This document shows positions 37,965 to 62,608 of a stretch of 64,000 bases of DNA, in pieces (within the stretch, counting starts at the first letter, position 1; every line of letters begins with the position of its first letter). The position numbers and the translations under genes were made by a program. The stretch is from assembly GCA_023920165.1 (NCBI GenBank), contig CP089276.1, positions 1,240,001-1,304,000 of the forward strand. Reading direction: 5' to 3'. The DNA is from Curvularia clavata (Eukaryota). The notes under the pieces were generated by a model, which was given only the letters and a program-made list of their open reading frames with translations, made no database searches and had not been told where the DNA came from.

Positions 37965-39745
37965 TCACGACGGCCAGGTGGACTTTTTTACAGTCATTGG
38001 CATGCCGTCACGGGGTTGAGCTTCAAATACAAATTCCTGGTACGCCCTGTCTCCAAAGGTCAAGTCAAGATCAAACCATTCCGTCCTGGGCGTTTTGTTT
38101 GGTTTGAGGTCTGCGCAGGTAAAATCAAAATCTCTTGTAGTCAAGAGAAGAGCAATCACCAGCTCATCCATGGCCAGTGGTTGGCCAAGGCAAGCTCTGG
38201 GTCCGCGCTCAAACGGACGCCATGCATGCCGAGGGAAGTCTTCGCGCATATATCGCTCGGGGTCGAACTTAAGCGGGTCTATGAACGAACGTTAGCGGTT
38301 TCTAAGTGCCTTCTGAACGATGCTACATGCTACTGACCAGTGAACAGGTTAGGGTTCATATGCATAGCTAACTGAACTGGGCAAATCATCAGGTCTTTTG
38401 ATGGCCATTGTTTGCCCTTATATGTAAGAGTGTCGATGCCCTTGCGGGCAGTGTTGCCAATTGGATAAAATCTAAGGATTTCCCTCATCACTCCGTTTGT
38501 ATACTTGAGCTCGTTGAGTTTGCCTGGATTGGCCTTTAGGATCTCATACGTCGCATCGATGCCAGGGGCAAAAACACGATCATGTTCCTCGCGCATCTTT
38601 TGGACTACCTCAGGATTCACGCTCAATAGCATTTGTCCAAAGCAGAGTGTGTCTGACGTCGTGCCACTGCCAGCGATAAGTAACGTCTTCACCTGGGTCA
38701 CAGCATCTTTCAGAAATTCGGAGCTAAGCTCTGTTGCTTTGCTGTTGGCAGGGTCTGTGAGATAATCCCTGAATATCAGGTCCATAATTCCGAGACCGCG
38801 CTTCTCAGACAGATCAAGGTTGCTTCCTGTAGCAGCGCTGGGTCAGCGATGCAATAGCTTATGCAGGACAAAGTGCTTACGTTTTATGTGTTCGAATCTT
38901 TCCTTGATGAGTTTCGTCATAAAATCGTCCAGCTTGTGTCTTTCAGAGTCGCGTGTTCTGTGGGCAAAGAAGTTACCAATGTAGTTGAACGAGTCTCTCG
39001 TCTTCATTTGAGCCCGGACCATGGCCTTGAAGTACTGCAGAGCGGGGCTGCCTTTTTTCTGAGCGTCAAGTGACTGCCCAAAAGCTGCCGTCGAAATGAC
39101 ATCGAATGTCAGATTATGAGTGTAATCCTCGAACCGAAAGATCTCTCCTGATTCTGCTTTTTGATGGAGGATAGATCTGAACTTCATCACTTCGGCGGCG
39201 ACCATCGGCCTCATTTCGGTGATGTGTGAGATGGAGAACGCAGAGCTCACCATCCTGTGCAGGTGTTTCCAGCGCGGCCCATCGGTGCTAACGATATTGC
39301 TATCCCCAATTATGGGATCGACTATAAGACCAATAGCCTCGTGTTTAGGATGATTACGGATAACGGTGACATCGAGCGCAAGGTCGGGATCTGTGACGAC
39401 GATCTGGCCCCACGCGACCGGCCACAAGTCGATATAGAAGAGACCTGGCAAGTTGTACTTTCTGGAAAGCGTTGTGACGGCGGCGTGGTAGTGAACATCA
39501 CGTGGCAGCATGGCAAAGGTTTCACCCATCAGCTTGAGGTGGCCGAATAGAAAGCTGTGAGGCGGCTTGGGCTATACACGACATTAGCCCGTATCTAGGA
39601 AGCACAAGTGTGACACAAGTGGTAGTGTACGAACAAGATCTCGGTAGAAGCGGCGGACTTGAATCAGTCGCACGATACCGTAGACAAGCGATGCGACGAT
39701 GCCTGTAAAGGCAATCGTCACCCATGGCAGGTCGCGGAGAGCCAT
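37965..39745 (-). CDS. Cytochrome P450 monooxygenase
   Basis: N-terminal TM anchor, PPHSFLFGHL, I-helix AGSGTT, K-helix EILR, PER and heme motif FERGPRACLG. Four exons. Confidence 0.93.
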
Positions 39746-39954
39746 TGTCAGAGACAAAGGAGTGATGACGGGCGACGAATGGGGCTGACCACATAATGTA
39801 GTCGAATATTTATGCTGCAAGGCGCCCAGCTAGGCGGCTGGGCGCTAGTAAGCGCAACGTGAGACGGAACCTGGACTTGAGGCCATGCCATGCTCTGTTT
39901 CTGTTCGCCCAACAACAGGACCCTCGCCATACATCTGCAGCATAAAACATATAG

Positions 39955-41054
39955 CTACGGTATCTCATCGTGAACTATCCTCTCCTTGGCCGCAGCCTTC
40001 GTCCTCGCATCGAGCAGCGACATCAGCACCTGGTCTGTACCCTCCGTCAACCATGAAGTATCATGCGCGAGTGCTATATGAGCCCCATGGTCCGTCTCGA
40101 GCGCCCGCAGTTTGGCAATGGTGTCTTTCGCAGACTCAATATCGCTATGGAGGGACATGAGCTCCGAACTAGGACCTGGAAAGCAGGCGATTTCGCGTCT
40201 CCCGTCGAGCAAGTCCCTCGAATGACAGCCTGATTCAGATACCTCATCAACAAAGACTCATAAGTGTGTGCATGAGGAACAACTTACAATCACTCCCAAG
40301 CACGACCCATTCGCCATTTCGCAACCTTGCAGCGGCGGCCAAGTTACCTGGCATATGTCCTGGTGCATCCAGAATCCAGAAACTGCCGTCTCCAAAGTAA
40401 TCCAACGCCTTTTCAAACGGTCCAAATGGTTGCCATTCGCCCTCCAGTTCTTGCCATTTCTCGGTGGCGTGGTCAGGATCAAAGAACCGCCCGTCCCATT
40501 GTAGGTTGGGATTTTTCATATGACCCGGCTCGCAACTTGCCTTTGTCCCTGGACCAAAGTACGCCGTCGCATTCGGAAACAGGTTACTGATGGGTCGACA
40601 ATGGTCGAAATGAGCGTGACTATGTTCGCTTTAGCCAACGCCTTGTACGTCCCTCGCTAGTGGCTTTTTACCTAAACAGAACAGTGTCGATCTCCTGCGC
40701 GGCAACGCCCCGTTCGGATAATTGCTGCACAATGGTGCGCCTCGGACCAGAAACAGTGGTACGTTCCAGCATGTTCTTATGCACCCAAGGCGTATAGCAG
40801 CTCCGATCCTGCAATGGCATGAGTCAAGTACGGTCAAGTTTTCTTAGTCTTCGCAATCTCACCTGGTCCAAGCCCAAATCCCAGAGAACATGTCTTCCTC
40901 CGTGCGCAATGTAGAATGCCCAATTGTACATGCGAAAAGTACCAAGCTGTCCCGCATGCAAAAGACTTAAGTCGCCGATGAAACTGCCTCCATCAAGCAG
41001 TGAGAGTTCTACGAAAGCATCTGTTGATGGCAAGCCGGGCTTTGATGCGATCAT
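39955..41054 (-). CDS. Metallo-beta-lactamase-fold hydrolase (AHL-lactonase/lactamase-like)
   Basis: Four exons: WDLG, SHAHFDH (HxHxDH, about 40598-40620), DYFGDGS...DAPGHMPGN, GSDC/CH and LAHD. Confidence 0.88.
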
Positions 41055-41460
41055 AATTCATGCAAACTTGGGTTATTATCGCGGTAGGTACGAGTCGCTA
41101 AATTCATTCGCCCACGATGCCCGCATGTGTTTATCAGTGCCAATGCCCCGCAGCCGGATCATTGTACCGGGGACAAGAGTTGCCATGGAGAAGCAACCCA
41201 GGCAGCTGTGTTCTCCACGTCTCGTGTGCTATGTGCAGTCGCTCAACTACTTAGGTACCCCACTACCGCATTCCTCCGAAGCCCGGTTTAGAAGCGGGGT
41301 AAATAGCTCTCCCACTCCCGCTTCCATCCGCCTATCTTCCCCAACCAATCCCATCACACAAAGAACATATGTGCAGGAACGGCAATTCCTTCAGAAAATT
41401 CCAAGCGCCGTAGTCGCCTAATCCTCAATACCACTGACTTTCTGTTCCGTACTCATCGAC

Positions 41461-43290
41461 ATGGCAGCCACTTTCACACATCCGGCACTTGGACGAGTTC
41501 AAGGGAATCAGAGAGATGGTGTCGCCCAATTCTTGGGTCTCAAATATGCATCGATAAAAGACCGTTTTGCTCCACCTGAGGTGGTAGATAGCTACGAGTC
41601 TGGGGATATAGATGCCACCAAGTTTGGGTCCGTAGAATGTACCTGTTCGCTGTGCAACAAGTATTGAACTAGTCTAGGCCTCCTTCAGTATCACCAGTCG
41701 GCGCCATCAATGCTGAGTTCGGCTTCCTCCAGCACTCTCTACCATTGCCACAGGTACCTTCGCATTCAGATCTTGAATGCCTTAACCTCAACATTACTGT
41801 ACCCACGGGCAAAGATGGCTCTATCGACTCGAATGCAAAACTACCAGTGTACGTGTTCATCCACGGAGGCGGTTTCGCAGTCGGGAGCAGCTGGTATCCA
41901 CAGTATGACCCAACTGCTATTGTGAAGATGTCGGTTGAAAAGAAAAAACCTATAATTGGCATCACCATCAAGTAAGTTTGCGGCAGTTGTGTACAAATAC
42001 TCGCAGCTGAGACGTTTAGTTACCGGTTGGGCGTCACCGGATTCATGACATCGGCTGAACTGCGAAAGGCTGGATACAAAGCAAACAACGGTCTTCATGA
42101 TCAGCGCGCTGCCCTACGGTGGGTTAGAAAGTTCATAAGTGGCTTTGGTGGAGATCCCGATCATATCACAGCGTGTGGAGAAAGTGCTGGAGCCTGTACG
42201 TTCCACTACCAGCCAACGTAGAACCAAAGCTAATATGACAGGGTCTGTAACATCCTTGCTGAGCTCGAACGAGCCGCTGATGCGACAAGGTCTGGGCACG
42301 GGTGGAACATCACTCCTCATTACACCCGTCCCAGAATTTGTGGCGGAAGCAGCCTATCAACAGGTTGTTGAAGCATTTGGATTGGCGGATTTGTCTCCAG
42401 AAGACCGCATCAAAAGGCTCCTGAACATACCAGTCGACGATATTTGGCAAAAGGTGCCAAAATCGGCGCGCATGACACCTACGATCGATGGAGATATCGT
42501 ACCTGGCGCGCTCGACTTCCTCACTGTGTCGTCTCAGGATGACAAGCCTACATCCGTGATACCAGGCCGAAATTGGTGCAAAGCGTTAATGCTTGGAGAA
42601 TCAAAGCTCGATGTAAGTTGCTCATTTATAGCTCATGATAGAGCTGTGTCTGATTGTGTCAAGGCCAACATCTTCGCATATACGACTCTGGATGCCCGAA
42701 AATCTGGAATTGCCCAAAGCTTTATTGACTCTTGCAACAAAACCCTTGCCAATAAACCAGAAGTAGCCAAGGAACTGATCACAGCGTACAACATCACCAC
42801 TTCGTCTTCAGATGACGAAGCGCTCCTCGCCATCCTACGCTTCCTTTCTGAGGTAGCCTTTTATGCTCCCGCGCGTGCATTCGCTCAGGGCTGGCCAAAT
42901 ACCTCTGATTCAAAACTCTTCCTCTACCACTTCAACGAGGGCATTCCCTGGGAAGGTCGTTTCAAAGGCGAAGCCGGCCATATCCTAGACGTCGCCTACC
43001 TGTTTCAAAATTTCAACGAGCATTTAGATGATGCGCAACTGAAAGTGGCAAGGGAGTACGGAGAGGATTTTATCAAATTCGTCAACGGCGAGGACCCCTG
43101 GCCCCCGGTGCAACAGGGTAAGCTGGGTGCAAAGGTGTATGGGCCCAGTGCAGATGGTGTAACAAGTAGGTGGGTGCCAGATGGGGCCCCAGCGAAGATT
43201 GGACGGGATGAGAGGATACTAAAGCTGGAAGAGATGGCTGGTATGGATACACTTTTTACAGTCTTCCTGAACTTCTTCCAAGGAAAGTAA
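41461..43290 (+). CDS. Carboxylesterase type B (alpha/beta hydrolase), no signal peptide
   Basis: Motifs FLGLKYA, LECLNLNI, FIHGGGF, GLHDQ.AAL.WV, nucleophile GESAGA and C-terminal AGHILD. Confidence 0.9.
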
Positions 43291-43399
43291 CTAGGCATAA
43301 CCGACTAACTACCAACCCTGAAATTATGTCAAACCTGATCGTCACCCTGATAATGTGAGAAGTGTGTCTTAGGCTCACAAAAAAGGTATACAAACTTTC

Positions 43400-44477
43400 C
43401 TAGGAACTTCCTCCATCCACCGCCTCCAACGTCGCATACGCCGGCGCAACCACGTCCTCGCTGATATCCCCCCATGCAGACCAGTGCTTGCCGACCAATT
43501 TCTTCGCCTCCACCTCATCCGCAATCGCAATCGCCATATCCCCCACACTAATCCCTGTCATCCTCCCCTCAAACACATCGTCGCCCTGCTGTTCTCCCAC
43601 CAGCACTGCATCATCAATACTAATCTCATACTTGCCCGTGCGCTTGCCCGGCCTATATAATGCCGGTGGCGACACAAAGCTCCACTGGAACGACGTCCTT
43701 TCTTCGAAAAACATATACGAGGTACGTCCCCCCTTGATGAAATCACTCGCACCATCTTTTGAACGAACCTGCTGCTCGTACTCTGCAATCACTGCCTCGT
43801 CTTCTGCAGTACGCGGCGATGCAAGACGTGCGGAACGGTAGCGTCGGAGAGAAGTGCCTAGAATACCGAGACGCTCTTCCATGTACGCAATGTGTGCAAG
43901 GGAGGTGGAGATGGCGCGGCGGTAGGCGAGGAAAAAATCAGGGTGGTCGGCGCAGGTAATGGAGGTGCCGGGGACGTGTAGTGAGCCGGCCCCTCCGACG
44001 AAGAGAAAGTAGGATGTTGGCTGGAGCTTGTGCGCGAGGATGAGTTTGCGGACAGCTTCCAGGAAGGGCACTGTAGAATGGTGCAGTTAGAGATCATTCT
44101 TATTTTTTCTTATCAATTTGAAGTACCCGAAAAGTTGGAACCACTTTTGAATTTGGTGATGGTATGAACAAGCAGAGAACGTGAGAAATAACTAAAAAGA
44201 ACGTACTGTAAAGTAACGCCCCTACCCCCGCCGTGTGCGGCCCATACTCAGATACTAGCACGTCGAGCCCTTTGAATGTCTCTGCTATCTCTTCAATTGA
44301 CCCGTTGTCTATGTCAACGGAGCGTGGGATATAGCGCGGGTGTTTGCCCAGTTTGGAGGGATTGCGTGAAATCCCGATCACGGTATGGCCTCGATTTAGG
44401 AGTTCAACACAGAGATACGAGCCTCCGAAGCCTGCAGGGCCGATGACGCCAACTTTCAAAGGTTTTGCTAGAGACAT
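43400..44477 (-). CDS. NAD(P)H-binding Rossmann-fold protein (atypical SDR / flavin-reductase-like)
   Basis: Motifs VGVIGPAGFGGS, FVGGAGSL, WSFVSPP...PGKRTGKY and ISVGDMAIAIADE. Two exons. Confidence 0.85.
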
Positions 44478-44900: not shown

Positions 44901-45994
44901 ATGGCAGAAAACTATGCGTTCATCGGTAATTACACCAACATGCCCGGATACGAACTTTCGTTCAAGAAGCGTTCAGTAACAAGTGAAACACAGGCCTGGG
45001 AGCAATGGGCTACGCAATGGCATCAAATATCCGCATGAAAATGCCTAGGACCTCCACGCTCTTTATCAACGACATCAACGCCTCCGCCTGCACCCGCTTT
45101 ACATCAGAATACTCCTCCTACGGCACCATAGAAATTGCATCTAGTGCAAAAGAAGCCGCCGAAAATGCTAGGTATCTCATCTCAATTGTTCCAGACTCCA
45201 AAGACGTGAGAAGTGTATACCTGGACGAACAAACCGGCGTCATAGCCGCTCGCAAAGACCCCGAAAGAATCATGCTGGAATGCAGTACTATCGACGTGCA
45301 AACCACAAAAGCCGTCGGATCCGCATTACAAGAAGCGGGTATTGGGACCTACATCGACGGCCCCGTCTCAGGCGGTATGCCCGCCGCCCAGGCAGGCACT
45401 CTGGCCCTCTTAATCGGGTACCCATCTCCCTCATCCCCACTCGCGAACCCCAATCTCTCCCCACGCCTCACTCACCTTCTCTCTATGCTTGGACCTGCCT
45501 CAAAAACTATTTACCTCTCACACCTCGGCGCCGGCCTAACCGCGAAAATTGCAAATAACTACATCTCAGGTACCGTTTTACTCGCTACCGCAGAGGCCCT
45601 CGCACTCGGTGTCTCGCATGGTCTGGACCCTGAGGAGTTGTATAAAGTGATAAAATCTAGCACGGGCCAGTCTTGGATGTGTGACCATGTCATGCCTATT
45701 CCAAATGTGCAGAAGGAGTATTGGGTCCCGAGTAATAGTGGGTATAAGCCGGGTTTCAAGACGCAGATGATGATTAAAGATTTGAGCCTTGGTGTGGAGA
45801 GTGCGAGGCAAGTGGGGACGAAGTGTAGTATGGCGGAGAGGGCGGTGGAGGTATGGCAGGAAGCAGCGGTAGACGAGAGGTGTAGGGGTCGTGACGGGAG
45901 TAGTATTTATCTCCATGTTGGGGGGAAGTTGCCAGAGGGGTATGAGGATAAGGCGATGAAGAGAGAAGATGGGACTTGGGAGTTTGCGGAATAG
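44901..45994 (+). CDS. Beta-hydroxyacid dehydrogenase (3-hydroxyisobutyrate/6-phosphogluconate dehydrogenase family)
   Basis: YAFIG/LGAMG across an intron; ECSTID, DGPVSGG, catalytic KIANNY and GF...MMIKDL. Confidence 0.9.
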
Positions 45995-46162: not shown

Positions 46163-47922
46163 TCAAACCGTCATCTCCTTCAAATTCTCGCTGACCTTGA
46201 AAGGCGCCTCCGTCTTGCTCTTGATCTCATCCACAGTAACGCCCTTGGCGTGCTCTATCAGTGTGAGACCTTCGACCCGGTCGCATTCAAAGACGGCCAA
46301 ATCGGTAATGATTGTGCTCACGCACTTCTGTCCCGTCAAAGGAAATGTGCACTGCTTAAGGATCTTGGGGTTGCCCTTCTTGTCAACGTGCTCCATGGTG
46401 ATGACAACTTTAGTTTGTGTGGGGTTTGCAACTAGGTCCATGGCGCCGCCGATACCCTTGACCTTCCCAGGAAGCATGAAGTTTGCTAGATCTAGATTTG
46501 GAATCAGATCAGGTTCAACCTTATTTAATAGAGTAAAGAGACATACCTCCGTATTGGTTGACCTGCATAGCACCGAGCATGGCAACGTCTATCCGACCTG
46601 AGCGGATCATGCCGAATGATTCGTGGCTTCCAAATGTCGATGCGCCCTTGATAAGTGTGACAGTCTCCTTTCCAGCATTGATCAAATCAGGGTCCTATCA
46701 TCACGTTAGCACCCTTCTCATATCCAACAACATATTCGTAAACAAACCTCCTCTCCAGGCTTAGGGTACCTTCCCATACCCAAAATACCGTTTTCGGACT
46801 CGAGAATGATTTCTGTACCCTCAGGCAGGAATGCGGGTGCTGCAAGTGGCATGCCAATGCCGAGATTGACATACATGCCATCCTTCAGTTCTTGTGCAGC
46901 GCGCTTGATGATGCGCTCTCGCTTTTGTGACGCTTCTGATGATCCTATTTTCTTGTCAGCGACTAACGCTTCTTGGTTGCTCGATCCGGCGTAAGACTTA
47001 CCGCCTTCCAGAAGTGCCTTCTTCTGCTCCTCTGGGCTCTTCCAGAACACCTTCCTCTCAATCTCCTTGCCTACCGTGCTCTTGATCACTCGCTTGACGT
47101 AGATTCCTTGAAGATGGATATCCTCTGGCGCAATCTCTCCATCCTCAACGATCTCGTCTGCCTCTACAATTGTCATCTTTGCATTCTTTCCCATTGCCTC
47201 GTTGAAGTTGTTTTGTGCTTTTCGGAACTGGCAGTTGCCGAGACGGTCGGCTTTGGCCACCTTGACAAAGGCATAGTCACCAAAGATGGCTTCTTCCATA
47301 ACATAAGGCTTTCCGTTGAATTCGCGAGTCTCTTTTGGTGGCGCCATCTTTGCGATTGTGCCGTCGGTGTTGTATCGGACGGGTAGCTCACCGGTTTGTA
47401 CTGCATTTTGTCAATTACAAGCCTTAGTACATATCGCTTCCTGAGATACAAACCTATTGTTCCATAGGCAGCGGGTGTGTAGAAAGCTGGAACTCCCGCA
47501 GCACCTGCAGCGCACTTCTCTGCGATGGTTCCCTGAGGAGTCAACTGCAGACTCAGTTCGCCTTTCAAGTACATTTGCTCAAAAACTTTGTTGTCGCCAA
47601 TGTAACTTGCGATCATGGTGCCGATCTGCTTCGTTTCCAGAAGTTGGCCTAATCCAACACCCGGCATGCCCGCATTGTTGCTGACAACTGTGAAGTTTGT
47701 GAGGTCTGATCGATCGCGTAGAGCATTAATAAGAGTATTTGGTACGCCTGAGAAACCGAAGCCGCCGACCAAGAGGGTAGAGTCAGACTTCATGTCCTTG
47801 ATCGCTTCCTGGGCAGAAGAGACTATTTTGTTGATCGCGGGTCGTGATGTGCTGGCAGAGAAGAAGCGCATGCCCGTCGCTGGACCGCGGCGGCGTGCTG
47901 AAAAGAGCAAAGATCTCTGCAT
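46163..47922 (-). CDS. Succinyl-CoA:3-oxoacid CoA-transferase (SCOT / 3-oxoadipate CoA-transferase-like), mitochondrial
   Basis: Presequence [36 protein letters not shown], catalytic SENG and KGIGGAMDL. Confidence 0.92.
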
Positions 47923-48553
47923 TGTGAGGTTCTAGTGACTGGGCGGTATGTAGAAGAGTTCGCTCTCAGGGAATTTCAATCCGTCCAATGCGGTTTATGA
48001 TACGTCACCAAGGAATCCGAGACTGTTTCTTGAGGATGAGCACGAAGATACCTGTAAGACGTCGGCAGCTTCTGATGTGCTTTACGATTGCCAACCCAGA
48101 ACGATATGAAAGAAAATATGGTGAATAGATGCTTGGTGCGGAGATGACGCTCCCCACACATACCACAAGGGCACGCATCATTGTTACTAGCCAGTTGAAG
48201 CTGGCCGACACAAATGCCGTGCCGATGGCGGGTAAGCAAGTCTCCACAATCGGAGGCGGCGGGAAAGAACTTAACCGAGCACATTGCGGAGGTTGCGGGC
48301 AAAACGCATGCTGATTGGTTGGAACAAGTAGCGGAAAAAGGCAAATGGGGTGCGGACATGGAAAAGGTTTCCACGCAAGCGATGGAAACCATTTCCATGG
48401 CTCAAATCAAGCATAGCTGGTTTATTCTTCGGGGGACAGTTCGGTCTTACATCACTGGGCTACTTCATTGACTATGCTACATTTTGAATATTTTGGTCAT
48501 CTGAGCCAAAGTAATCTGCTCATGGGCAACACTTTCTGCCCTTGGCATATGGA

Positions 48554-50014
48554 TCAGTAGAGGTTGCGCACGATTTGTTTCACTGCAGCACATGTCAGTT
48601 GTTGTTGTCAAGACGCCGGTGAGATGGCTTACAGCTAGCAAAATCCTTGTGCTCTTTACTGTGAAGTGCGCGCAAGGCAATGGCTTCTTCTTCGGCTTCT
48701 CCTGTTGGCACGTTGTACTGTAGGACTGTTAGTAATCACTTTCCAAACATGAGTCCATGACTTACGGCTGTCAAGCTTGTCTTGTGTCCGAGTCCCTCGA
48801 CAAGGCCAGCAATGGCATCAGCAACGATATGCGAATCTTTCTCGTCGCTACCCGTGCTCTGTTTGCCAATGTATGGAATAATTCTGGCAATCTGTTTTGC
48901 TTCCTCCGGGTTGCTGGCCTTGAAATGTACTGTAGGCGCTAGGCTAAGGCAGCTGGTAATACCGTGTGGAATGCTATACGTGGCACCGATTGCATGACCA
49001 ATGCTATGACTGAGGCCGACGCCTCCAGTGTAGAGGAACGGGAAAAGAGACGAATAGCAAGCGACGAAGAGCTTTGTGCGGACTTGCGCATCATCTGGGT
49101 TGGCCTTCGACTGGGGTAGGTAAGTGAAGAGATCTTTGATCGCCTCCAAAGCCATGCGCTTTGTGGGTATTTCAGCTGCAAGTGGATGATACATCAGCTC
49201 TACCGCATGGTCCAATGACCGAATCTGAGGTTAAGTCAGTAAGCTTCCATTGGCGTGTTCCTTGCGATGGATTTGCTTCATACCCCTGTGCTAGTCCAGA
49301 GATTCAAAGGTGTGTACAAGGCAAGGTCTCCGTCATAAACCACGGCTAATCATAGTCAGAACACGCTTGGAGCTTCCTCGAACGGGTCGCCACTTACCCT
49401 TTGGTACTAACTCTGGGTTGCTGACCGCAATTTTATGCTTCTCTTCGGTTGTGAAACCAGCATTTTGTGTGGTCTCAGCGACGCTCAGCGTCGTCGGGAC
49501 TGCGATACTCGGTATCCACTTTCCTGTCTCTTGGTGGATGTTATATGCAATAGCCTTGGCCGAATCGATAGGCGATCCACCTCCTATTGATACAAGAACA
49601 TCACATCCTGACTTTGCCATCAAAGAGGTGGCTTCTCTAATGTCTTGAATTGGTCTGTAAGGCGTGAACTTCTGGTGCGACAGACAAATCATGATATACT
49701 TACGCATGCTGCCCAATCTTACTGAACGTACCGCCATGGGCTGATCCCAAGGTCTTCTCGATATTCTTGATCACTGGAGTCTTTTCGTAAAGCGACCGGC
49801 CGGTAATGATAAATGCTTTGGTAGCGCCGAGCTCTCCAATGACATCTAGAAGCTGGTTGCTTGTTCCTTAGGTAGAGGTTTAGCTCTGGTGGAAGCCAAG
49901 AAGAGACATGTACCTACCATTTCCGTATATCATAAGTTTGATAGGTGATGCCCTGTATACTCCCTTCGTAGAGGAGTCGATGCTACCATTTTGATATTTG
50001 TTAGGAAGAGCCAT
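48554..50014 (-). CDS. Iron-containing alcohol dehydrogenase family, maleylacetate-reductase-like
   Basis: Multi-exon gene with IGGGSPIDSAKA, AVPTTLSVAE, G/IRSLDHAVE and GLSHSIGH...IPHG; ends ...KQIVRNLY*. Confidence 0.82.
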
Positions 50015-50290: not shown

Positions 50291-51608
50291 ATGGCGAACT
50301 TCAGCAGGGCTGCACGGAGCATCCTTCAGAAGAGCCCAAATGACGTTGTACTGCTGTCTGCTGTCAGGTCCCCGATCAATCGGAGTTTCAAGGGTGGATA
50401 CAAAGATGCACACCCCGAGGATATTCTAATGCCAGTGAGTTCAGCGATGACAAATCTTGATCAATGGCTGAACCTGAGCAGGTCATGCAAGCCGCTGTAC
50501 AACGAGCTGGAATCGAGAAAAGCGACGTCAACGATGTCTTAATAGGAAATGTTCTTGCTGAACTCGGTTTCGCAAAGACAGGGCGCATGGGACTTAACCA
50601 TGCTAGCTTTCCAAATTCGACCACTTTCCACACGGTCAATCGTCAATGCTCGAGCAGCTTGCAAGCAATAACCCACATAGCACACTCAATCATGGTGGGT
50701 CAGGTGGACGTGGGGCTTGCTGGAGGCGTGGAAAGCATGTCGAGGAATTATGGCTCGCGGGGGATCCCAACAGACGTTTCTCCTACTCTGCTGAATTCCA
50801 ACATCAAGGATGCCCGTGACTGCCTCATGCCCATGGGCATCACGTCAGAGAATGTAGCAGAAAGATACAATGTTGATCGAAAGTCGCAAGATGAGTACGC
50901 CGTACGAAGTCACGGTCGTGCAAGTCACGCACAGAGAGAAGGTCGTTTTGATTGGGAGACGGTACCAGTGAAGGTGCGACGAGTTGATGAAACAAGTGGA
51001 CAGCCAGTCGAATTCGAAGTCACCAAAGACGATGGTATCCGACACGGTCTGACTTTTGAGAAAGTTTCCTCACTCAAGCCTGTATTTGGAGAAAATGGCA
51101 AGAGTACTGCTGGCAACTCGTAAGTCATCCTTCTAAGCTGCTGTTGCAAAGCTGAATATACAGCTCTCAAATCTCCGATGGAGCATCTTCCACCATTCTC
51201 GCTCGACGCTCGTGGGCAGAAGCTAGAGGCCTTCAACCACTGGGTCGCTTCGTAGGCACACAAGTCAGAGGTTGCGCGCCAGATGAAATGGGCATCAGCC
51301 CAGTCTTTGCTATACCAGCATTGCTTCAATGGACGGGCGTAGCGCTCAGCGATGTGGACATTATCGAACTGAACGAGGCCTTTGCAAGCCAAACCATTGC
51401 ATGCATACGAAAACTTGGCCTGGACGAAGACAAAGTGAATCCAAATGGTGGGGCTATAGCGCTTGGACATCCTACTGGAGCCACCGGTGCGCGTCAGACC
51501 GCGACGCTGTTCGGGGAGTTACGGCGACAGGATAAGGAGATTGGGATTGTCAGCATGTGTGCCAGCACTGGCCTGGGTGTCGCATCGCTATTCGTCAGAG
51601 AGTCATAG
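50291..51608 (+). CDS. 3-ketoacyl-CoA thiolase (3-oxoadipyl-CoA thiolase-like)
   Basis: Motifs [10 protein letters not shown] (catalytic Cys), [31 protein letters not shown] and SMCASTG. Confidence 0.93.
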
Positions 51609-51955: not shown

Positions 51956-53383
51956 ATGTTCCTGCTTCGACGTGCCCCACTACGTGCAATTCCACGGCTC
52001 TCGACTGTGCGTCCTCAGCGGAGACTGCTCGGTAGCGTCAGTGCAATTGATTCTGTAATCTTTCGCACTCTCTTCGGAACGGACGAGATTCGAAAGGTAT
52101 TTGACGACAAAGCATACATTGACCGATGCGTGGACGCCGAGACCGCTCTAGCCAGAGCACAATCAAAATGCAACGTTATTCCGTCCCACATTGGAGAAGT
52201 TGTGACATCGAAAGCAAGAGAAGCACAGTTAGACTATGATAAGCTGCGTCGTGAGACGGAAATTGTTGGCTATCCTATCTTCCCGTTGGTACGCCAGCTG
52301 TCTGCATCCTGTGGTGACGAGGCTGGACGATACGTGCATTGGGGAGCCACTACGCAGGATATCATGGACCTGGCAAGCATGTTGCAGATGAAGGAAGGTC
52401 TCCAGATCGTTGAACGAACACTCCGGTCCGTAATCAAGAACCTCGAGCATCTCTCAAAGAAACATCGGGACACTCCTATGGCCGGCCGCACACATTTGCA
52501 ACATGCCCTGCCCATTACCTTTGGCCATAAATGTGCTATTTGGCTTTCTGGTTTCCAAAGGCACCTCGAGCGTTTAGAGCAACTAAAGGAACGCGCATTG
52601 ATGGTGCAATTCGGCGGAGCTGCAGGTTCCTTGGCTTCGTTAGGATCAGGCGACGATGGAATTCGGGTCCGAAAGGAAATGGCAAAAGACCTTGGTCTCA
52701 CAGATCCCCCTATCACCTGGCATGTTGCGCGAGACGGCGTTGCCGAAATCACAAATTACCTTGCACTTGTTGGCGGATCACTGGGCAAGCTCGCCCTAGA
52801 CATCATCATCATGTCATCAAACGAGCTCTCTGAAGTATCGGAGCCCTTTGTACCACATCGAGGTGCATCGTCTACCATGCCGCAGAAGAGGAACCCCATT
52901 TCAAGCGAGGTCATTCTCGCAGCCTCGAAGATATTACGATCAAATGCCGGCTTGGTGCTCGATGGCATGGTGTCGGACTTTGAGCGTGCTTCCGGTCCAT
53001 GGCATCTTGAATGGGTCGCTGTGCCAGAGAGCTTCGTCATTGCTGTTGGCGCACTCAACCAGGCCGACTTTGCACTCTCTGGCCTGGTTGTCAATCCCAA
53101 GCAAATGCTCACTAATCTATACTCAACTAGGGGCCTGATTGTCGCTGAGGCTGTCATGATGGGCCTTGCTCCACATGTTGGTCGCTCAAAAGCGCACGAT
53201 ATTGTTTACGAGGCATGCAAAGAGAGCATCGAGAACGATACTAGTTTATTAGAAGCTCTCCAAACACGATCTGAAATCACCGACAAAATCTCAACCCAGG
53301 AGTTGAGTTCTTTGTGCGATGCCAAAAATTACCTTGGCTCATGCGGGCTCATGGTCGACGAAGTCTTAGCTGCTTCGAAGTAA
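51956..53383 (+). CDS. Fumarase/adenylosuccinate-lyase superfamily enzyme, PcaB (3-carboxymuconate cycloisomerase)-like, mitochondrial presequence
   Basis: Intronless. HWGATTQDI, GRTHLQHA and signature SSTMPQKRNP; Arg-rich N-terminus MFLLRRAPLRAIPRLS. Confidence 0.85.
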   Translation: MFLLRRAPLRAIPRLSTVRPQRRLLGSVSAIDSVIFRTLFGTDEIRKVFDDKAYIDRCVDAETALARAQSKCNVIPSHIGEVVTSKAREAQLDYDKLRRETEIVGYPIFPLVRQLSASCGDEAGRYVHWGATTQDIMDLASMLQMKEGLQIVERTLRSVIKNLEHLSKKHRDTPMAGRTHLQHALPITFGHKCAIWLSGFQRHLERLEQLKERALMVQFGGAAGSLASLGSGDDGIRVRKEMAKDLGLTDPPITWHVARDGVAEITNYLALVGGSLGKLALDIIIMSSNELSEVSEPFVPHRGASSTMPQKRNPISSEVILAASKILRSNAGLVLDGMVSDFERASGPWHLEWVAVPESFVIAVGALNQADFALSGLVVNPKQMLTNLYSTRGLIVAEAVMMGLAPHVGRSKAHDIVYEACKESIENDTSLLEALQTRSEITDKISTQELSSLCDAKNYLGSCGLMVDEVLAASK

Positions 53384-53833: not shown

Positions 53834-55647
53834 ATGATGCAAGACTTCAAGGAACGCAAACTTGTGACCGACCCACAGAAGGCATTTCACTTCACGGATC
53901 TCCAGCGGCTAAAGCCAACACGTGCAAACGACCCATACGACTATCAAACAGGATGGGGAAACCGGCATCAGTCTGAAGTCATTCCAGGTACACTGCCAGT
54001 TGCGCAGAATAATCCCCAAGAAGTCCGATTTGGCCTTTACACTGAAGGCATCACATACTCGGCGTTCGCAGCCCCCCGTGCGCACAACTTCAGTACTTAT
54101 ATGTATCGCTGCCGACCAGCGGCTGCTCACAGTATGTATCATCTCAAAAAGCTTATGAAGCCGTTGCTGATCTCTAATAGATGGCTACGTTCCTATCGAG
54201 TCAAAATCTAACATCACAAACTGCTTCCTCTCTATCAACCCCAAAGTAGAGACGCTTCCTGAGCAAGCTGAGTGGAGGCCATTCCCGTTGCCGAAAGATG
54301 ATGAGAAGATTGATTTTGCCGACGGTCTGCACACTCTCTGTGGAAGTGGCGATCCAAACATCAGAGAGGGCATTGCGCTCTATGTCTACATGATCAACTC
54401 AAACATGGAGCGGCGAGCATTTTGCAACACTGATGGTGACTTCCTCATTTGCGCACAGCAAGGTAATCTTGACATCAAGACTGAGATGGGAAAAATCTTC
54501 CTGCAACCTGGAGAGATTTGTGTCATCCAGCGTGGCATCAGATTCTGCCTTAACTTGGCACCTGGTACTTCGGCAGCACGGGGTTATATCACTGAGGTAT
54601 GGGGCTCCATGTGGGAGCTTCCAGATCTCGGCCCTCTTGGTGGTCATGGGCTGGCTAATCCTCGCGACTTCCTGTACCCGGTGGCTGCTATCGACGATGA
54701 GTTGCACGTCGACTGGCAAATTGTCAACAAGACGAATGGTCAGCTTGTAGCCATCCAGCAGGATCATAGTCCATTTGATCTCGTAGCATGGCACGGCAAC
54801 GTTGTTCCATACAAATACGACCTTACCAAGTTCTCGTCCCAGAACAGCACATCCATCGACCACACTGACCCTTCAATTTTCACAGTCTTGACCGCCAAAT
54901 CTCGCGACCCTCTGACACCATTATGTGACTTTCTGTGGTTCGGGCCACGGTGGGATGTTGCAACCAACACTTTCAGACTGCCGTACTTCCACCGCAACTC
55001 AGCTTCTGAGTTTTTGGCTTGCATTTACGGCCAGGGTCTTGGTCGTAGCGACGATTTCCAGCCTGGTGGAGGTAGCTTCGAGGGCAGTCACACACCACAT
55101 GGAGGCTTCCATGAAGGGTACCAGCATGGCATGCGTATCCATGAAAACCAACCCGAGAAAATTTTGACTGGTAAGTTTATTTCAAGACGATATAGAAATC
55201 AACATCTAACGCATTCTTAGATCAATTGACCATTATGATTGAATCGAGCCGTCTATTTCTTTTCACTGAGTACGCGCGCAAAGGCTGTGGAACAATCGAC
55301 ACACACGGCACGGACTATAGAGTCTGGGACAAACTACCTGTAAGTTTCCGTGTTACGAAACACTCCAGGCTTGTTCTAATATCTTATAGGATCGCTTTTC
55401 AAGCAACCAAAGAGCTCAAGAGCTGCTCGCTCGCATCAAAGAAGACAAACTTGCCGAGAAGCAGTGGCTCGCACCCTATTATTTCGGCGGATTCTCACAT
55501 GGTGCAAATACTAGCAGCACTGACGGAGTTCACCGAGAGGAGCTTGAGCCTTACCTCAGCGAAAAGGCAGAGGTGAACGGCATCAATGGAACTAACGGAC
55601 ACAAGGGGATTAATGGAACCAATGGAACAAACGGAATCAAAGCTTAG
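53834..55647 (+). CDS. Homogentisate 1,2-dioxygenase-like ring-cleavage enzyme (divergent paralog)
   Basis: Four exons. YQTGWGN..SE, PG.LP..QNNPQ, DGDFLI..QQG.L, ELPDLGPLG.HGLANPRDF, WHGN..PYKYDL, DHTDPSIFTVLT, PYFHRN..SE and TPHG. Confidence 0.9.
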
Positions 55648-55853: not shown

Positions 55854-55930
55854 CGAGGAATCTGGTGAAAGTTGGTGATGGACTTTCTTTTTAACATGGC
55901 AAGGCCCAGTTATGGATTTCTGTAGCCATC

Positions 55931-57607
55931 ATGTATACCTCTGGGGCGCTTGTGAGATTCGCGCCGCGTGTGGGCGTACGACACTCAACTGGCCAAGTTC
56001 TTGCGGCAAGATCATGTCAGTGGAGGAGAAGTATATCGAACCAGAGCAATGTAGATAAGCAGGCGGTTGAAAAGTTACCTTTGGCTGGTATCAAGGTATT
56101 GGATATGACGAGGGTTTTGGCAGGGGTATGTAATAAATATTTACATTAGGGCCTTTGAGGAACGTTCTTACTCACAACACTATACAGCCTTACTGCACAC
56201 AGATACTCGGAGACCTGGGGTAAGCAGCTCTGGCTTTCTATTCCAAAGAATACATCAATTGACAAGATAGCACAGAGCAGATATTATCAAGATCGAACAC
56301 CCAACACGCGGCGATGATACACGATCATGGGGTCCTCCCAACGCACCATATACCGATGGCATAGAACGCCAATTCCCAGGAGAAAGCGCATACTATCTTT
56401 CTGTAAGCCTCATCTTCCCTCTGACTGCCAACCATTCTAGTTCTCCCAGTGCCTCTTACTAAAACACTTCTCTTTTCCCCATGCAGGTAAACCGCAACAA
56501 GAAATCCGTCGGCCTCGCCTTCAACAACCCGAAGGGGACATCCATCTTACACAAACTCGTCGAGCAATGTGATGTTCTGGTTGAAAACTACCTCCCTGGC
56601 TCTCTAGCCAAATACAAACTCGACTACGCGACGCTCTCGAAAATCAATCCCTCGCTCATCTACGCTTCCGTTACAGGATATGGCCAGACAGGTCCTTACC
56701 GTGACCGGGCTGGCTACGACGTCATGGTAGAAGCGGAAATGGGACTCATGCATATTACGGGAGAGCGCGATGGTCCTCCTGTTAAGGTGGGCGTTGCGGT
56801 CACGGATATCATGACGGGCATGTACACAGCGATTGGGATACAAGCGGCATTATATTCGCGCAAGGAGACGGGGCTGGGCCAATGGATCGACGCGAGTTTG
56901 AGCGATGTGCAGGTTTCAGGGCTGGCGAATATTGCGAGTAGTGCTTTGGTGACGGGGAAGGGAGATAGTGGGCGGTGGGGTACTGCGCATGGTGAGTGTT
57001 GTTTTGATTTCCCTTGTTTTCCATTATATCTGGTGCGTGTATCGGAAATTTGGGTTTAGGGAGTATTCGTTCAGGGTTACGGAAGTTAACAGCATCAACA
57101 GCAACTGTAGTACCGTACCGCGCATACGCCACAAAAGACACAAACGTTGCCGTTGGCGGATGCAACGACCGCCTTTTCAAGATCCTATGCGACAAGCTCT
57201 CGCATCCGGAATGGGCTTCTGACCCGCGCTTCCTGACAAACGCTCTCCGTGTGCAACATCGCACCACGCTCGACGCCATGATCGAGGCGGAACTCAAGAC
57301 GAAGACTACAAAGGAATGGCTGGATATCTTCGAGGGAAGTGGGATGCCGTATGCGGCTGTCAACGACATCAAGGCGACAGTAGAACATGAACACGTGCTG
57401 GCAAGAGGCATGATTGAGGAGGTTGAGCATAAGGCTCTAGGCAAGGTCAAGTTGGTCAACCATCCAGTCAAGTACTCGAAGGCTGAGCCAAAGATTCGAA
57501 TGCCGCCACCACTGCTGGGCGAGCATACAGATGAGGTGTTGAGAGAGATATTGGGGTATAGGGAAGATGAGATTAAGGGGCTGAGAGATACAGGCATCGT
57601 TGCATAG
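55931..57607 (+). CDS. Family III CoA-transferase (CaiB/BaiF; SUGCT-like), mitochondrial presequence
   Basis: PLAGIKVLDMTRVLAG/PYCTQILGDLG/ADIIKIEHP, NRNKKS, VENY.PG, GYGQTGPY, catalytic VAVTD and PPLLGEHT. Confidence 0.92.
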
Positions 57608-59385: not shown

Positions 59386-62300
59386 ATGGCGCTGAAGCAA
59401 TGTAGCATGTGCGATCGAACCTTCACCAAGTGTATGTTACCTTCGACTGTGCGGCGCATGTTCATACTGACTTTCCTACTAGTGGAGCACGTAAAGCGCC
59501 ACGAGCGATCTCGTATGTCTGGCCCAGTTCTTGGACAGGATGCATGAGGCTTATATTTATCTAGACACGCGAGAGCGACCTTATGAGTGTCCGACATGCA
59601 AAAAGCATTTTTCGCGCAGGTGAGAGCCCTAAGAGGAGAAAAACAAAAGTCGCCCTGTCCAACCTCCAATCAGCGACGTCTTATTTCGCCATTGCAAAGG
59701 CCACGCGCAGAATGCCATGAACCGGATGAAGAACAATGAACAACAGCAAAACTCCGCGACAGATCAGAATCAGCGCAATAAGTCTCTGAATGATGGTCAA
59801 ATATCAAGTCCAGCCAGTTCGCGGCCAGCAATGTCACGCAACGGAAGCGGCCCGGCCTCAATGCCAGCACCATCAATCCACGACGACTCCAACTTTTCAC
59901 CCATGGCCAACAGGACAGATGCGCAAATGGCGCAAATGAATATGAGTCGACACTATAGCGCACATCTTTCGTCAACTTCCCACGGACGGCAACCGTCGTC
60001 GCGACTGCATCCGGCGTCGCCCGGCGAGGATCGTATCGAGGCGCTCATAAATGCGGCCCAGCATCTCGAGCCTGGGGTCGACACACCATGGCGATCGCCC
60101 TCACCCATGCTCATTTCCCGCAGTGAAAATGCACCGATGCAGAACCGGAACCATCACGAAAATATGGGACCGCCAATAGATCCAGCAATGGAAGTTTTGT
60201 CATTCTCGCCTGCAGCCCACGTCTCAAGCTTGGATCAATGGGCCTTTGAGCTCGTCCAGAGCAACAACCCAGTTCCCAACCGGACGCCAGCTGATGCACT
60301 GCAAACATGGCTATTTCCTCTAGAAAATGATGTACACACCCCGCAAGGACCGCATTCGCTAGGAGTAGGAGTCGACGGCTTTTTCGATTCTGAGACTGTC
60401 CGAGCGATGCAAGAGAATCAGGCGAGCCCGTCCGGCAGCAGTGTGTCCATTGCAAGCAGAGTGCCAAGAGAGCGGTTTCAAAGAGTCCAAAGTTGCTGGC
60501 CAGCACGGAATCGGAGATCTTCGCGTTTGATGCTAGATCTTTGGCAGAGTCTCATCTCGTCTGAATGCACTAATCTTCTCTCAGGAGATTCTGGGACAAT
60601 AGAGACACCGATCAGTGCAAGGGACAGGAAAAACTCGCGCTGGGGCCTGGATGAGGAATGCAGGATTAGGCTCCAGAGTGTAGTGAGAAGTCTACCGTCC
60701 TCAAATTTGCCGCGGTCGGAGTCTATTGCCGACACTGCATCATCCAGTGGTGATGCCGCTGGCAGTCCAGGTGTGGACAGCATTCAGTTTCCTCCCGCTG
60801 AAATCTTGGACATTGCATTAGAGATGTATCTCTACTATTTCCATCCTACTCTCCCAATCATTCACATACCGACTTTCTCGGCGAAGAGCGCACCGCGGCC
60901 TTTGCTTCTATGTATGTGTCTGATTGGATTGAGTATACTTGGGACAGCAGGCGCAGCCAAATTCGTCACGCGAACGTTTCCAGTAAGTGAAGCGAACGAG
61001 GAGACGTTGCAAATTCTAACATGAGGCATAGACTGTGCTACAGCTTGCTCTGGCCGAACTGCAATCGTTACCAGGGTCAGATCAGCCCCCACATAGGCAG
61101 ATGAGGATTATAGCTACCAGCTTACTAGCTCTTAACCTAGCTTCCATTACCGGCGTAAGTTATTGAAATGGCTCATCTAATATCATGCTAACCTCCGCCA
61201 AGCGAAAAAGCCGCATCGCGCAAGCCGAGAAGTTGTATACAGAGCTCATTGGTGTATGGAGTCATTTACACATAGAATTCAACCATGTCACTGACAAACA
61301 CAGTATGCCCAAAGCCAAAGCCTTTTCTCTGTAAACGAAGCGACCAAAGTAGAGCCACTCATAGATGAGATCATCGACATCGACGCCAAATGGAAAGCAT
61401 GGTCGAAAGTCGAGTGCAGCAAACGAATCATATTCGGCCTGATTGAGGCAGATTGTTGGTGGGCAGGATACCTCTCGACTGCTCCCATGCTACGCCCAGA
61501 AACCGTTCATGTCCTACCACCTTCTGATCACACATTATACCATGTGAATAGCGCTGCAAAGTGGTTTCATCTGGTGCAGCGAGGAGCAAGAATCCATTCG
61601 CAAAAGATCACACCGTCATTCCATCCAACACCTGGGTTGAAATTGGACACAAGTAGTTTCCGAGTTTTGCTAACACTCCTACTCCTCCGCATCTACGAGA
61701 GCAACGACCGCCTAGCCCCTGCGACAGGAAACCAGAAGCAGCTGGAGCCGTGGCGCATCTATGCCGAAGACCCACGAAGTCGCGATATCCTTCCCTTGTT
61801 GGTAAACCTTTCGAGCTCCTCCATCGACGCTGTCCGCACTGCAGATCTCAATTCGGCCGTTCTTTGGCATGCCTCTTGTATGCTTCTCGGCGCCAACCTG
61901 CGTTACTTCGAGCTCGCAGCTGGACGTGCGGGCCCTGAACCTGCCGTCAGCGCCCTTGACGACATTTCCGCCTGGACCCAAACGCCTAGCGCGCGCCGCA
62001 GCGTTGTACACGCCGCACAAATATTCAAGCTGCTTTTCGACCGCAAAGTTAGTGACATTGTCAACCCGCACAGCGTCGTCGCTCTCTTCCACGCTGCCCT
62101 TGTCCTCGGTCTGTACATATTCACCGTTCCGCCTCACCCCCAAACCTCCACCAACGGCAACTGTCCACCAAACGAGTCGTGCATCGAATTCCTTGACTTG
62201 GTGGATTGGCTTTCTGTCGGCCAGCTCGGTTTCATAGACACCCCGCAGTCTCCCGTCGGCTTCTCAGACTCCAGCGATGTAATAAAATTCATACGTCATG

Positions 62301-62608
62301 GCGGCCCATTCAGTATGACAGGCATCGTGCTAGAAGGCGGCTACCTCGCTGCCCGACGTACGCTCCTGCACTGTTCAGACCTCATGGAAGGCATGGGCCG
62401 CTGGAAGAGCCGTACTTTCAGCCAGATACTGCACATCATGAGCGACGACCTGACCGACTACGAAGGCCACAGCAACGACGAAGAGGAAGTGTCGGGTTAT
62501 GAAATGGATTTGCGGGATAACGACGATAGGGAAAGGACGAGAAGCGCGACTAGGCTAGGGCCGAGAGATGAAGGACAGCAGCAGCAGGAAGCGAGTCATC
62601 AGCTGTGA
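59386..62608 (+). CDS. C2H2 zinc-finger transcription factor with fungal-specific TF (MHR) domain
   Basis: Small exons splice to [49 protein letters not shown]. Later YFHPTLPIIHIPTF and W..W...E..KR. Confidence 0.9.

Follow-up and report, generated by a model that had tools for sequence, protein, structure and literature searches.

A Two-Layered Gene Cluster of Curvularia clavata with a Third Clade of HGD-Family Dioxygenases: A Candidate Route from Hydroquinone-Type Aromatics to 3-Oxoadipate

Introduction

A block of twelve consecutive genes in the fungus Curvularia clavata may be compared with several described systems for the degradation of aromatic compounds. The block lies within a 64,000-nucleotide stretch of contig CP089276.1 (assembly GCA_023920165.1, positions 1,240,001 to 1,304,000 of the forward strand), referred to in the following as the window. 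Among the described systems, the homogentisate or tyrosine-degradation cluster is composed of the genes hppD, hmgA, maiA and fahA. The lower 3-oxoadipate pathway is another, of which the Candida 3-oxoadipate clusters provide a further example.

In Aspergillus niger, the dioxygenase MhdA opens methoxyhydroquinone to give a methyl ester, from which a maleylacetate-reductase homolog and the esterase OmeA are thought to give 3-oxoadipate (PMC8336404). The transferase gene kstA serves all 3-oxoadipate branches (PMC10406623). The FAMeDB database (2026) records eight ring-opening intermediates for fungi, two of which were added recently.

Organization of the Gene Block

The block is composed of two layers, an old and widely conserved core and a shell that is specific to the Pleosporales. 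The core contains a SCOT-type CoA-transferase, a maleylacetate reductase, a thiolase, a CMLE/Tad1-type lyase, a paralog of homogentisate dioxygenase (HGD) and a C2H2 regulator. The shell contains a carboxylesterase, an NmrA-like reductase, a HIBADH-like dehydrogenase and a SUGCT-like CoA-transferase. With modest confidence, the block is read as a catabolic cluster for a para-diol, hydroquinone-type aromatic intermediate with an exit via 3-oxoadipate.

All twelve genes were located at the positions given in Table 1. A Pfam analysis of 62 stop-to-stop open reading frames (ORFs) identified the families of eleven genes, and the twelfth was recognized by the motif of a metallo-β-lactamase (MBL) fold hydrolase. 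The twelve consecutive genes that an earlier note had proposed from the sequence of the window are thus confirmed. The predicted coding sequences are separated by 109–554 bp, with the exception of 1.8 kb before the regulator. The genes contain short GT..AG introns and their best named relatives are from the Pleosporales, with 92% identity to Plenodomus lingam for the HGD exon and 95% to Curvularia clavata for the esterase.

Among the scanned ORFs of the window, with a minimum length of 80 amino acids between 36 and 64 kb and 105 amino acids between 1 and 35 kb, Pfam identified no polyketide synthase, nonribosomal peptide synthetase or terpene synthase, neither the zeta-class glutathione S-transferase (GST) nor the fumarylacetoacetase (FAH) family, and no intradiol dioxygenase of the catechol, hydroxyquinol or protocatechuate type. 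Since no family of backbone enzymes was found among these ORFs, a secondary-metabolite cluster was rejected. The scan agrees with the earlier description of a degradative, regulator-linked cluster devoid of the canonical homogentisate partners and of a backbone synthase.

Table 1. Genes of the C. clavata block, with positions in the window. X1 is one of the RNA runs described in the text.
Feature	Layer	Position	Strand	Evidence
Cytochrome P450		37965..39745	-	Pfam p450 on three ORF pieces (37965-39571); start MALRDLPW at 39745
MBL-fold hydrolase		39955..41054	-	HSHAHFDH motif in ORF pieces; X1 contigs cover gene
Type-B carboxylesterase	Shell	41461..43290	+	Pfam COesterase on N-terminal exons (41422-42218); four RNA-supported introns
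NmrA-like / NAD(P)H-binding atypical SDR reductase	Shell	43400..44477	-	NAD_binding_10 (44103-44492), Epimerase
HIBADH-like beta-hydroxyacid dehydrogenase	Shell	44901..45994	+	NAD_binding_2/11 (44987-45991)
Fused SCOT-type 3-oxoacid CoA-transferase, kstA-like	Core	46163..47922	-	CoA_trans (46166-47931); RNA-supported introns
Fe-ADH-family maleylacetate reductase	Core	48477..49989	-	Fe-ADH / ADH_Fe_C (48739-49770); six RNA-supported introns
3-Ketoacyl-CoA thiolase	Core	50291..51608	+	Thiolase_N/C (50461-51605)
CMLE/Tad1-subgroup lyase, 3C8T type, aspartase/fumarase superfamily	Core	51956..53383	+	Lyase_1 + ADSL_C (51707-53380)
HGD paralog, third clade	Core	53834..55647	+	HgmA_N 3.3e-75, HgmA_C 3.3e-31 (53774-55217)
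HGD model exons		53834-54131, 54181-55170, 55221-55339, 55390-55647	+	X1 contig piece spans 54181-55169
Family III CoA-transferase, SUGCT-like	Shell	55931..57607	+	CoA_transf_3 (56463-57604)
C2H2/MHR regulator	Core	59386..62608	+	Fungal_trans (59633-61021); two C2H2 fingers read directly

The Ring-Cleavage Dioxygenase

In an alignment with human HGD (PDB: 1ey2), the PYFHRNSASEF and HTPHG segments of the window HGD are matched by PYYHRNCMSEF and TPHG, and the aligned His, Glu and His residues are presumably the metal ligands. The 329-amino acid exon alone scored 374 bits against the hmgA equivalog model TIGR01015, for which the cut-off is 510.75. The 120 best relatives fell into two tiers, one of at least 62% identity and approximately 510–550 amino acids, the other of 55–60% identity and approximately 480 amino acids. 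In a tree of 49 rows, the window HGD and A. niger P0043 were placed in a clade of 30 rows with a Shimodaira-Hasegawa-like approximate likelihood ratio test (SH-aLRT) support of 99. This clade spans the Dothideo-, Leotio-, Sordario- and Eurotiomycetes and stands apart from a group of 7 rows and another of 12. The relationship is one of paralogy, since some sequences from Venustampulla and Clonostachys fall within the window clade and others do not.

P0043 clusters at 90% with a fused 1873-amino acid model that carries a PNP_UDP_1 domain. In the A. niger genome, the gene NRRL3_01881 beside the HGD gene NRRL3_01882 encodes a nucleoside-phosphorylase domain (PMC10406623), and because of this match P0043 was identified with NRRL3_01882. 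In the label order of a published tree (PMC8336404, Fig. S4), the three A. niger HGDs appear as 9969 with HmgA, 10111, which is MhdA, and 1882. The MhdA bracket is centred on a group of ten rows, and NRRL3_1882 lies outside of it in a neighbouring group of five rows that includes A. nidulans, P. subrubescens, T. stipitatus and C. lunatus (PMC8336404). The window dioxygenase is therefore the ortholog of NRRL3_01882, and neither HmgA nor MhdA. An identity as canonical HmgA was rejected given the distinct clade and the lack of GST and FAH families among the scanned ORFs, and orthology with MhdA (NRRL3_10111) was rejected given the grouping with NRRL3_01882. The six HGD-family enzymes of FAMeDB (April 2026) include none from the NRRL3_01882 group.

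Two groupings within the clade may be due to transfer between classes or to paralogy that is hidden. Boeremia P0048 and Ascochyta P0057, which belong to the Didymellaceae of the Pleosporales, group with Verticillium P0050 (SH-aLRT 100) and not with other Pleosporales, and Lineolata P0019 groups with Clonostachys P0053.

The Lyase

Among proteins of known structure, the lyase is closest to the uncharacterised protein 3C8T (549 bits, E 9e-164), followed by Tad1 (410 bits, 1e-121) and PcaB (338 bits, 8e-100). The earlier note had named the gene a PcaB/ASL-like lyase; it is not PcaB. The protein scored 347.4 bits against the pcaB model TIGR02426 (cut-off 355.75) and 451 against PRK09053 (cut-off 595). 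A Pseudomonas genome (G001) holds both types, a true PcaB of 469 bits and a paralog of 353 bits, and the window lyase is 36.9% identical to the former and 56.6% identical to the latter, of which it is an ortholog.

The SS loop and the catalytic Arg segment of the CMLE/Tad1 subgroup are retained in the lyase as GASSTMPQKRNP and SDFERASGPWHLEW. A residue test to separate Tad1 from CMLE was discarded as non-discriminating, since the Arg and both Trp residues of the Tad1 catalytic segment are also found in true PcaB. The amino terminus is an arginine-rich extension without acidic residues, MFLLRRAPLRAIPRLSTVRPQRR..., which was observed in the window and in six of ten related loci; the frame that was read did not include the first exon of the remaining four. 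From this extension, the lyase is probably mitochondrial.

In prokaryote genomes, 585 of 600 pattern matches encode relatives of the lyase, the best 80 being 54–61% identical. Units in which the bacterial gene lies between a GntR/UTRA gene and an SDF dicarboxylate symporter are proteobacterial and actinobacterial, with L069:9156-12736 and L040:9140-12700 as examples. S-(2-succino) lyase, a member of the same broad class (PMC9706529), was considered and set aside, with no support for a subfamily identity and with bacterial loci that are not yxe loci.

Genes of the Lower 3-Oxoadipate Route

The reductase, the SCOT-type transferase and the thiolase together make up the known lower 3-oxoadipate route. 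The best solved relative of the reductase is 9ph0, 'MAR1' (E 3.4e-35), where the identity as a maleylacetate reductase is read from the name only. The second PDB match is a methanol dehydrogenase (1.2e-13) and matches to the bacterial reductases 3w5s and 3hl0 are weak. Neither the reductase nor the HGD possesses a presequence. The SCOT-type transferase has a mitochondrial-type presequence and matches the pcaI/scoA and pcaJ/scoB subfamilies on successive exons, each of which alone scores below the whole-protein cut-off. Its likeness to kstA is one of synteny only, as kstA (NRRL3_01886) is found four genes away from NRRL3_01882 (PMC10406623); two other SCOT paralogs exist in A. niger. Given this synteny and the service of kstA to all 3-oxoadipate branches, the cluster may hold the canonical copies of the reductase, transferase and thiolase instead of dedicated ones. 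In a gene model from Thermoascus thermophilus (P0189), a Thiolase_C domain is fused to the lyase.

Synteny Across Fungi

Conservation of the block was examined in 62 metagenome loci that encode relatives of the HGD exon. The counts take only loci with enough flanking DNA, which amounts to at least 8.1 kb upstream for the SCOT-type transferase and, downstream, at least 2.5 kb for the family III transferase and 7.5 kb for the regulator; near-duplicates are L137/L138, L098/L099, L101/L102/L127, L105-107 and L108/L129. Near the HGD gene, the lyase was found in 20/32 loci, the thiolase in 16/25, the reductase in 14/21 and the SCOT-type transferase in 10/14. A homolog of the regulator (34–84% identical) accompanied 15 of 16. 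From the shell, the family III transferase was present in 7/27 loci, all with an HGD identity of at least 78%, the NmrA-like gene in 4/13 loci with enough upstream DNA, and the HIBADH-like gene in L083, L084, L087 and L091.

The order SCOT-reductase-thiolase-lyase-HGD is kept in L100, L111, L113, L130 and L137, where HGD identity ranges from 62 to 80%, and the full order is retained at 62% (L137, L138). With the core order repeated even at HGD identities of only 62–80%, the grouping is more than chance.

In named genomes, the lyase and HGD have consecutive locus tags in nine species of the Eurotio-, Leotio- and Sordariomycetes (Penicillium alfredii, Talaromyces verruculosus, Paecilomyces variotii, Thermoascus thermophilus, Oculimacula yallundae, Scytalidium lignicola, Fusarium nematophilum, F. 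lateritium and Verticillium albo-atrum), and they are also adjacent in A. niger. The esterase is seven tags from the HGD in both Plenodomus lingam (004638, 004645) and P. lindquistii (004209, 004216), the same spacing as in the window. In seven more Pleosporales, the longest contigs of the esterase and of the HGD or lyase are equal in size; in three further ones, the longest contig of the esterase equals only that of the family III transferase, itself a shell gene. Synteny in other fungi, which had been named beforehand as a check, was therefore found for the core and most of the shell.

Some loci depart from this arrangement. L098 is without a thiolase. In L102 (80% identity), a DDE_1 transposase ORF (7142-8086) is placed between the lyase and HGD, and there is no reductase, so that this copy of the cluster appears to be in decay. 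Two loci without a lyase, thiolase, reductase or SCOT gene near the HGD have a Polysacc_deac_1 gene that separates the HGD from the regulator homolog (L094:11565-12593, L108:13157-14125), which may represent a second, different neighbourhood for the dioxygenase clade.

Transcription and Splicing

Contigs from four public RNA runs, each from a different study, were compared with positions 37900-57899. GT..AG joints of 46–63 nucleotides (CT..AC on the minus strand) were identified in the P450, esterase, SCOT and reductase genes, demonstrating that these genes are transcribed and spliced. Besides the fifteen joints listed there are 24 further ones; the joints match the gene models of this analysis. 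In the P450 gene, the supported introns are 38279-38337, 38826-38879 and 39572-39634. Run X1 provided contig cover in all 30 bins of the region and contains transcripts of all cluster members. Parts of it were without cover in runs X5, X9 and X15, from which no conclusion was drawn. Run X15 is a root metatranscriptome that contains transcripts of four of the genes, and their expression by the organism therefore extends to a plant-associated setting.

Loose ends with poly-T and adapter sequence were found in run X9 at 45992 and 48472. Two convergent gene pairs, esterase/NmrA-like (43290-43400) and HIBADH-like/SCOT (45994-46163), have 3' ends that are 109 and 168 bp apart. The 3' transcript ends of both pairs probably overlap, since single X1 contigs span each pair.

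Shell Genes, Regulator and Flanking DNA

The family of the carboxylesterase was assigned from its N-terminal exons and from precomputed Pfam annotations of its orthologs; the C-terminal 383 amino acids returned no Pfam or PDB match. The NmrA-like reductase has weak PDB matches to NADH-flavin-reductase-like proteins. The HIBADH-like dehydrogenase scored 204 bits against TIGR01692 (cut-off 291.6); it begins with MAENYAFIG followed by an intron and has no presequence. In the family III CoA-transferase, which has a mitochondrial-type presequence, the best NCBIfam match is succinate-glutarate CoA-transferase and the second is mesaconate CoA-transferase, both below cut-off. Its orthologs are 83–85% identical over the N-terminal part in seven named Pleosporales species (eight proteins). 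The 90%-identity cluster of the Plenodomus HGD (representative P0003) also lists family III CoA-transferases from seven Pleosporales species. As these have no similarity to HGD, a fused gene model may bridge the two.

The P450 and MBL hydrolase genes precede the shell. A search of the Protein Atlas with the P450 returned generic P450 clusters only, and a P450 of 50–55% identity adjoins the SCOT gene in just one metagenome locus, L098. The MBL gene had no Pfam match at E ≤ 0.001. The HSHAHFDH motif can be read, and similarity to N-acyl homoserine lactone (AHL) lactonases is weak, namely an AttM match in NCBIfam (E 9e-6) that is far below cut-off and PDB 9kho (E 0.0019). The P450, the MBL hydrolase and a GH3 gene lie more than 10 kb from the HGD, which is beyond the metagenome flanks, so that absence from those loci carries no meaning. 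For the P450 and MBL hydrolase, it is adjacency that suggests a role; the NmrA-like, HIBADH-like and SUGCT-like proteins may likewise take part in the pathway.

In the regulator, both C2H2 fingers precede the Fungal_trans domain and an intron splits the first finger. The interval between the family III transferase and the regulator (57608-59385, 1.8 kb) presents short ORFs only, without Pfam matches, and possibly holds a long 5' leader or a small gene.

Upstream of the P450, the GH3 gene is followed by a mixed set of HlyIII, pirin, GH131, HET, Dus, Rpc25 and PI-PLC genes, and the left border of the cluster is therefore near the P450. The GH3 glycosidase (Glyco_hydro_3 N and C, Fn3-like) at 34730-37015 (-) is directly upstream of the P450. 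It could release an aglycone from a phenolic glucoside; nothing ties it to the cluster. A pirin-family bicupin (Pirin, Pirin_C) is located at 27710-28861 (+), 9 kb upstream of the cluster, and a 436-amino acid ORF without a Pfam match lies between the two (29489-30796, -).

Proposed Pathway and Alternatives

What was observed is the gene content, the transcription and splicing, the assignment to a clade, the conserved synteny and the catalytic motifs at family level. On this basis a pathway may be proposed in which the substrate class, the order of steps and the compartments are predicted. The third-clade HGD-family iron dioxygenase would open the ring beside a substituent to give a maleylacetate derivative, and the maleylacetate reductase would saturate its double bond. 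By analogy with MhdA, cleavage beside a hydroxy group would give maleylacetate itself and cleavage beside an alkoxy group an ester. In the latter case, hydrolysis of the ester by the Pleosporales-specific carboxylesterase would release 3-oxoadipate, which would explain why the esterase is kept in the Pleosporales. A mitochondrial SCOT-type transferase would then form 3-oxoadipyl-CoA and the thiolase would cleave this to acetyl-CoA and succinyl-CoA, with the adjacent C2H2/MHR regulator presumably controlling the gene set. The lyase may decarboxylate or lactonise a ring-fission product that bears a carboxyl group, or may carry out a cleavage that releases fumarate. If the substrate were to carry a ring carboxyl, the product could be an aconitate-like 3-carboxy compound that an enzyme of the Tad1/CMLE type could decarboxylate or lactonise.

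A number of observations weigh against this pathway. In A. niger, NRRL3_01882 reached only about 3 transcripts per million (TPM) on protocatechuate (PMC10406623). The RNA contigs show presence and splicing, give no levels and cannot show co-expression. Shared promoter words in nine intergenic regions were not above shuffles, where the best 7-mer occurred in five regions and was matched in 79/200 shuffles and the best 8-mers occurred in three and were matched in 200/200. The lyase is not next to the HGD in 12/32 loci with enough upstream DNA, and several of the lyase-less loci show the HGD and regulator only, twice with a polysaccharide deacetylase (L094, L108). It is also present in A. terreus, A. 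japonicus and F. oxysporum, for which neither the 120 best HGD hits nor the published tree showed a member of the dioxygenase clade. Bacterial orthologs of the lyase are found in the GntR/UTRA-lyase-SDF unit in six of seven annotated loci, with a peptidase M29 gene adjoining in the seventh, and not with aromatic genes. Given this wider distribution, the presequence and the bacterial context, the lyase may not act on the ring-fission product and may serve another dicarboxylate. The order of ring cleavage followed by a lyase or lactonisation step, which the earlier note had put forward, is weakened because the lyase has a mitochondrial-type presequence and occurs in species without the HGD clade. 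Lastly, no Aspergillus relative is among the 159 hits of the esterase, which may therefore differ from OmeA in function.

A bolder proposal is offered tentatively and is considered somewhat unlikely. Here, the block would encode a ninth central aromatic pathway of fungi in which the third HGD clade opens a substituted hydroquinone, a mitochondrial Tad1/CMLE-type lyase decarboxylates or lactonises the product, and the reductase, SCOT-type transferase and thiolase complete the route. Such a pathway would be ancient in the Pezizomycotina and partly horizontally transferred, and its substrate might be a hydroquinone with a carboxyl or alkoxy group, for instance 2,4,5-trihydroxybenzoate or 2,5-dihydroxy-4-methoxybenzoate. 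We know of no fungal aromatic pathway that includes a lyase-type decarboxylation or lactonisation.

The block could instead be a general lower 3-oxoadipate module for all branches, with the HGD paralog parked alongside as a redundant enzyme for hydroxyquinol or methoxyhydroquinone cleavage and with the lyase and shell genes as passengers. This is considered unlikely. In its favour, kstA, the near neighbour of the HGD ortholog in A. niger, was required on each of the aromatics tested, the mutant growing on fructose only, and kstA rose approximately 44-fold on protocatechuate while the HGD ortholog stayed at the low level given above (PMC10406623). Cleavage of hydroxyquinol in the manner of MhdA would yield maleylacetate directly, leaving the lyase unneeded, and the broader distribution of the lyase than of the HGD clade would suit a passenger. 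However, adjacency of the lyase and HGD in ten named genomes and in 20/32 loci is hard to explain for passengers, and the regulator homolog stays with the HGD in nearly every locus where it could be scored (15/16). The equal spacing of esterase and HGD in two Plenodomus species and the agreement of longest contigs in seven more Pleosporales also argue against this explanation.

An improbable alternative is that the block encodes the described methoxyhydroquinone (vanillate) pathway of MhdA, OmeA and maleylacetate reductase. The A. niger pathway draws on three families, those of HGD-type dioxygenases, type-B carboxylesterases and maleylacetate-reductase homologs, and each has a member in the block. 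Against this, the window dioxygenase is placed with NRRL3_01882 and not with MhdA, and A. fumigatus, A. oryzae and F. graminearum, which have MhdA homologs in the published tree, do not appear in the window clade among the 120 best hits. The esterase hits contain no Aspergillus, and Paraphoma, in which the HGD ortholog occurs, is without an OmeA ortholog according to FAMeDB.

An alternative homogentisate route, in which maleylacetoacetate would be reduced to succinylacetoacetate, activated with CoA and cleaved by two thiolyses to bypass the isomerase and fumarylacetoacetase, is very improbable. In its favour, the metal motifs of the HGD-family enzyme are intact, the GST-zeta and FAH families are missing from the scanned ORFs and the reductase, CoA-transferase and thiolase would suffice on paper. 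Against it, the clade is distinct from canonical HmgA, the lyase and esterase are left without a role, and no precedent was found in the full-text searches.

A catabolic cluster for a hydroquinone-type intermediate with a 3-oxoadipate exit remains the preferred reading. The cluster draws attention to a dioxygenase clade and a lyase family, both uncharacterised, that are kept beside this exit in moulds of four classes. Since A. niger is among the carriers and its genetics are easy, a further route from lignin or plant phenolics has here a candidate that can be tested directly. For lyases of the 3C8T type, the cluster provides a first physiological context. Such lyases occur commonly in soil bacteria, and a structure has been solved, but no function was found for them.

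Comparison with Known Systems

In full-text searches and in FAMeDB 2026, no description was found of the third clade, its lyase partner or the cluster, and the statement in the earlier note that the gene combination is undescribed holds within these sources. FAMeDB lists no third-clade HGD and no Lyase_1 enzyme; it cites a review on clusters of fungal central pathways (Martins et al. 2019, Adv Microb Physiol) that is of possible relevance to novelty. The genes NRRL3_01881-01885 and 01887 are not mentioned in the main texts of the literature searched.

The window shares with the homogentisate/tyrosine cluster (Greene et al. 2014, PMC3914699) a ring cleavage of the HGD family and the organization of a fungal catabolic cluster with its own regulator. 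It differs in the HGD clade, in the lack of an isomerase and a fumarylacetoacetase among the scanned ORFs, and in its exit by CoA transfer and thiolysis. The lyase belongs to the same superfamily subgroup as bacterial PcaB and the trans-aconitate decarboxylase Tad1 of Ustilago maydis (PMC11880804, PMC4720413) and keeps the SS loop GxSSTMPxKxNP and the ER..GxW...W segment of both. In contrast to these, it falls below the pcaB cut-off, is nearest to 3C8T and carries a presequence.

The A. niger methoxyhydroquinone pathway (MhdA, the reductase NRRL3_4956 and OmeA; Lubbers et al. 2021, PMC8336404) is alike in its HGD-family dioxygenase, reductase homolog, type-B carboxylesterase and 3-oxoadipate exit. 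The window dioxygenase is in the neighbouring NRRL3_01882 group, and its esterase may not be an OmeA ortholog. Only mhdA and omeA are neighbours in A. niger, whereas the window also clusters the reductase, SCOT-type transferase, thiolase, lyase and regulator.

A related arrangement is that of A. niger NRRL3_01880-01888 (PMC10406623), where a transcription factor, the HGD paralog, a fumarate-lyase gene, kstA and a second transcription factor occur within nine genes. This locus is without a reductase, thiolase, esterase or family III transferase, and a peptidase M49 gene and hypothetical genes are interspersed; it is a reduced version of the window neighbourhood. KstA and KctA of A. niger are likewise a fused SCOT-type transferase and a thiolase that convert 3-oxoadipate into succinyl-CoA together with acetyl-CoA (PMC10406623). 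As in the lower 3-oxoadipate pathway, the window reductase would feed the SCOT-type transferase and thiolase from maleylacetate. Upstream of this point the two differ, the window having an HGD paralog and a lyase of the class-II-fumarase type with no intradiol family among the scanned ORFs. In sum, the cluster looks like an addition to the 3-oxoadipate-type central pathways of fungi, which are themselves of a known kind.

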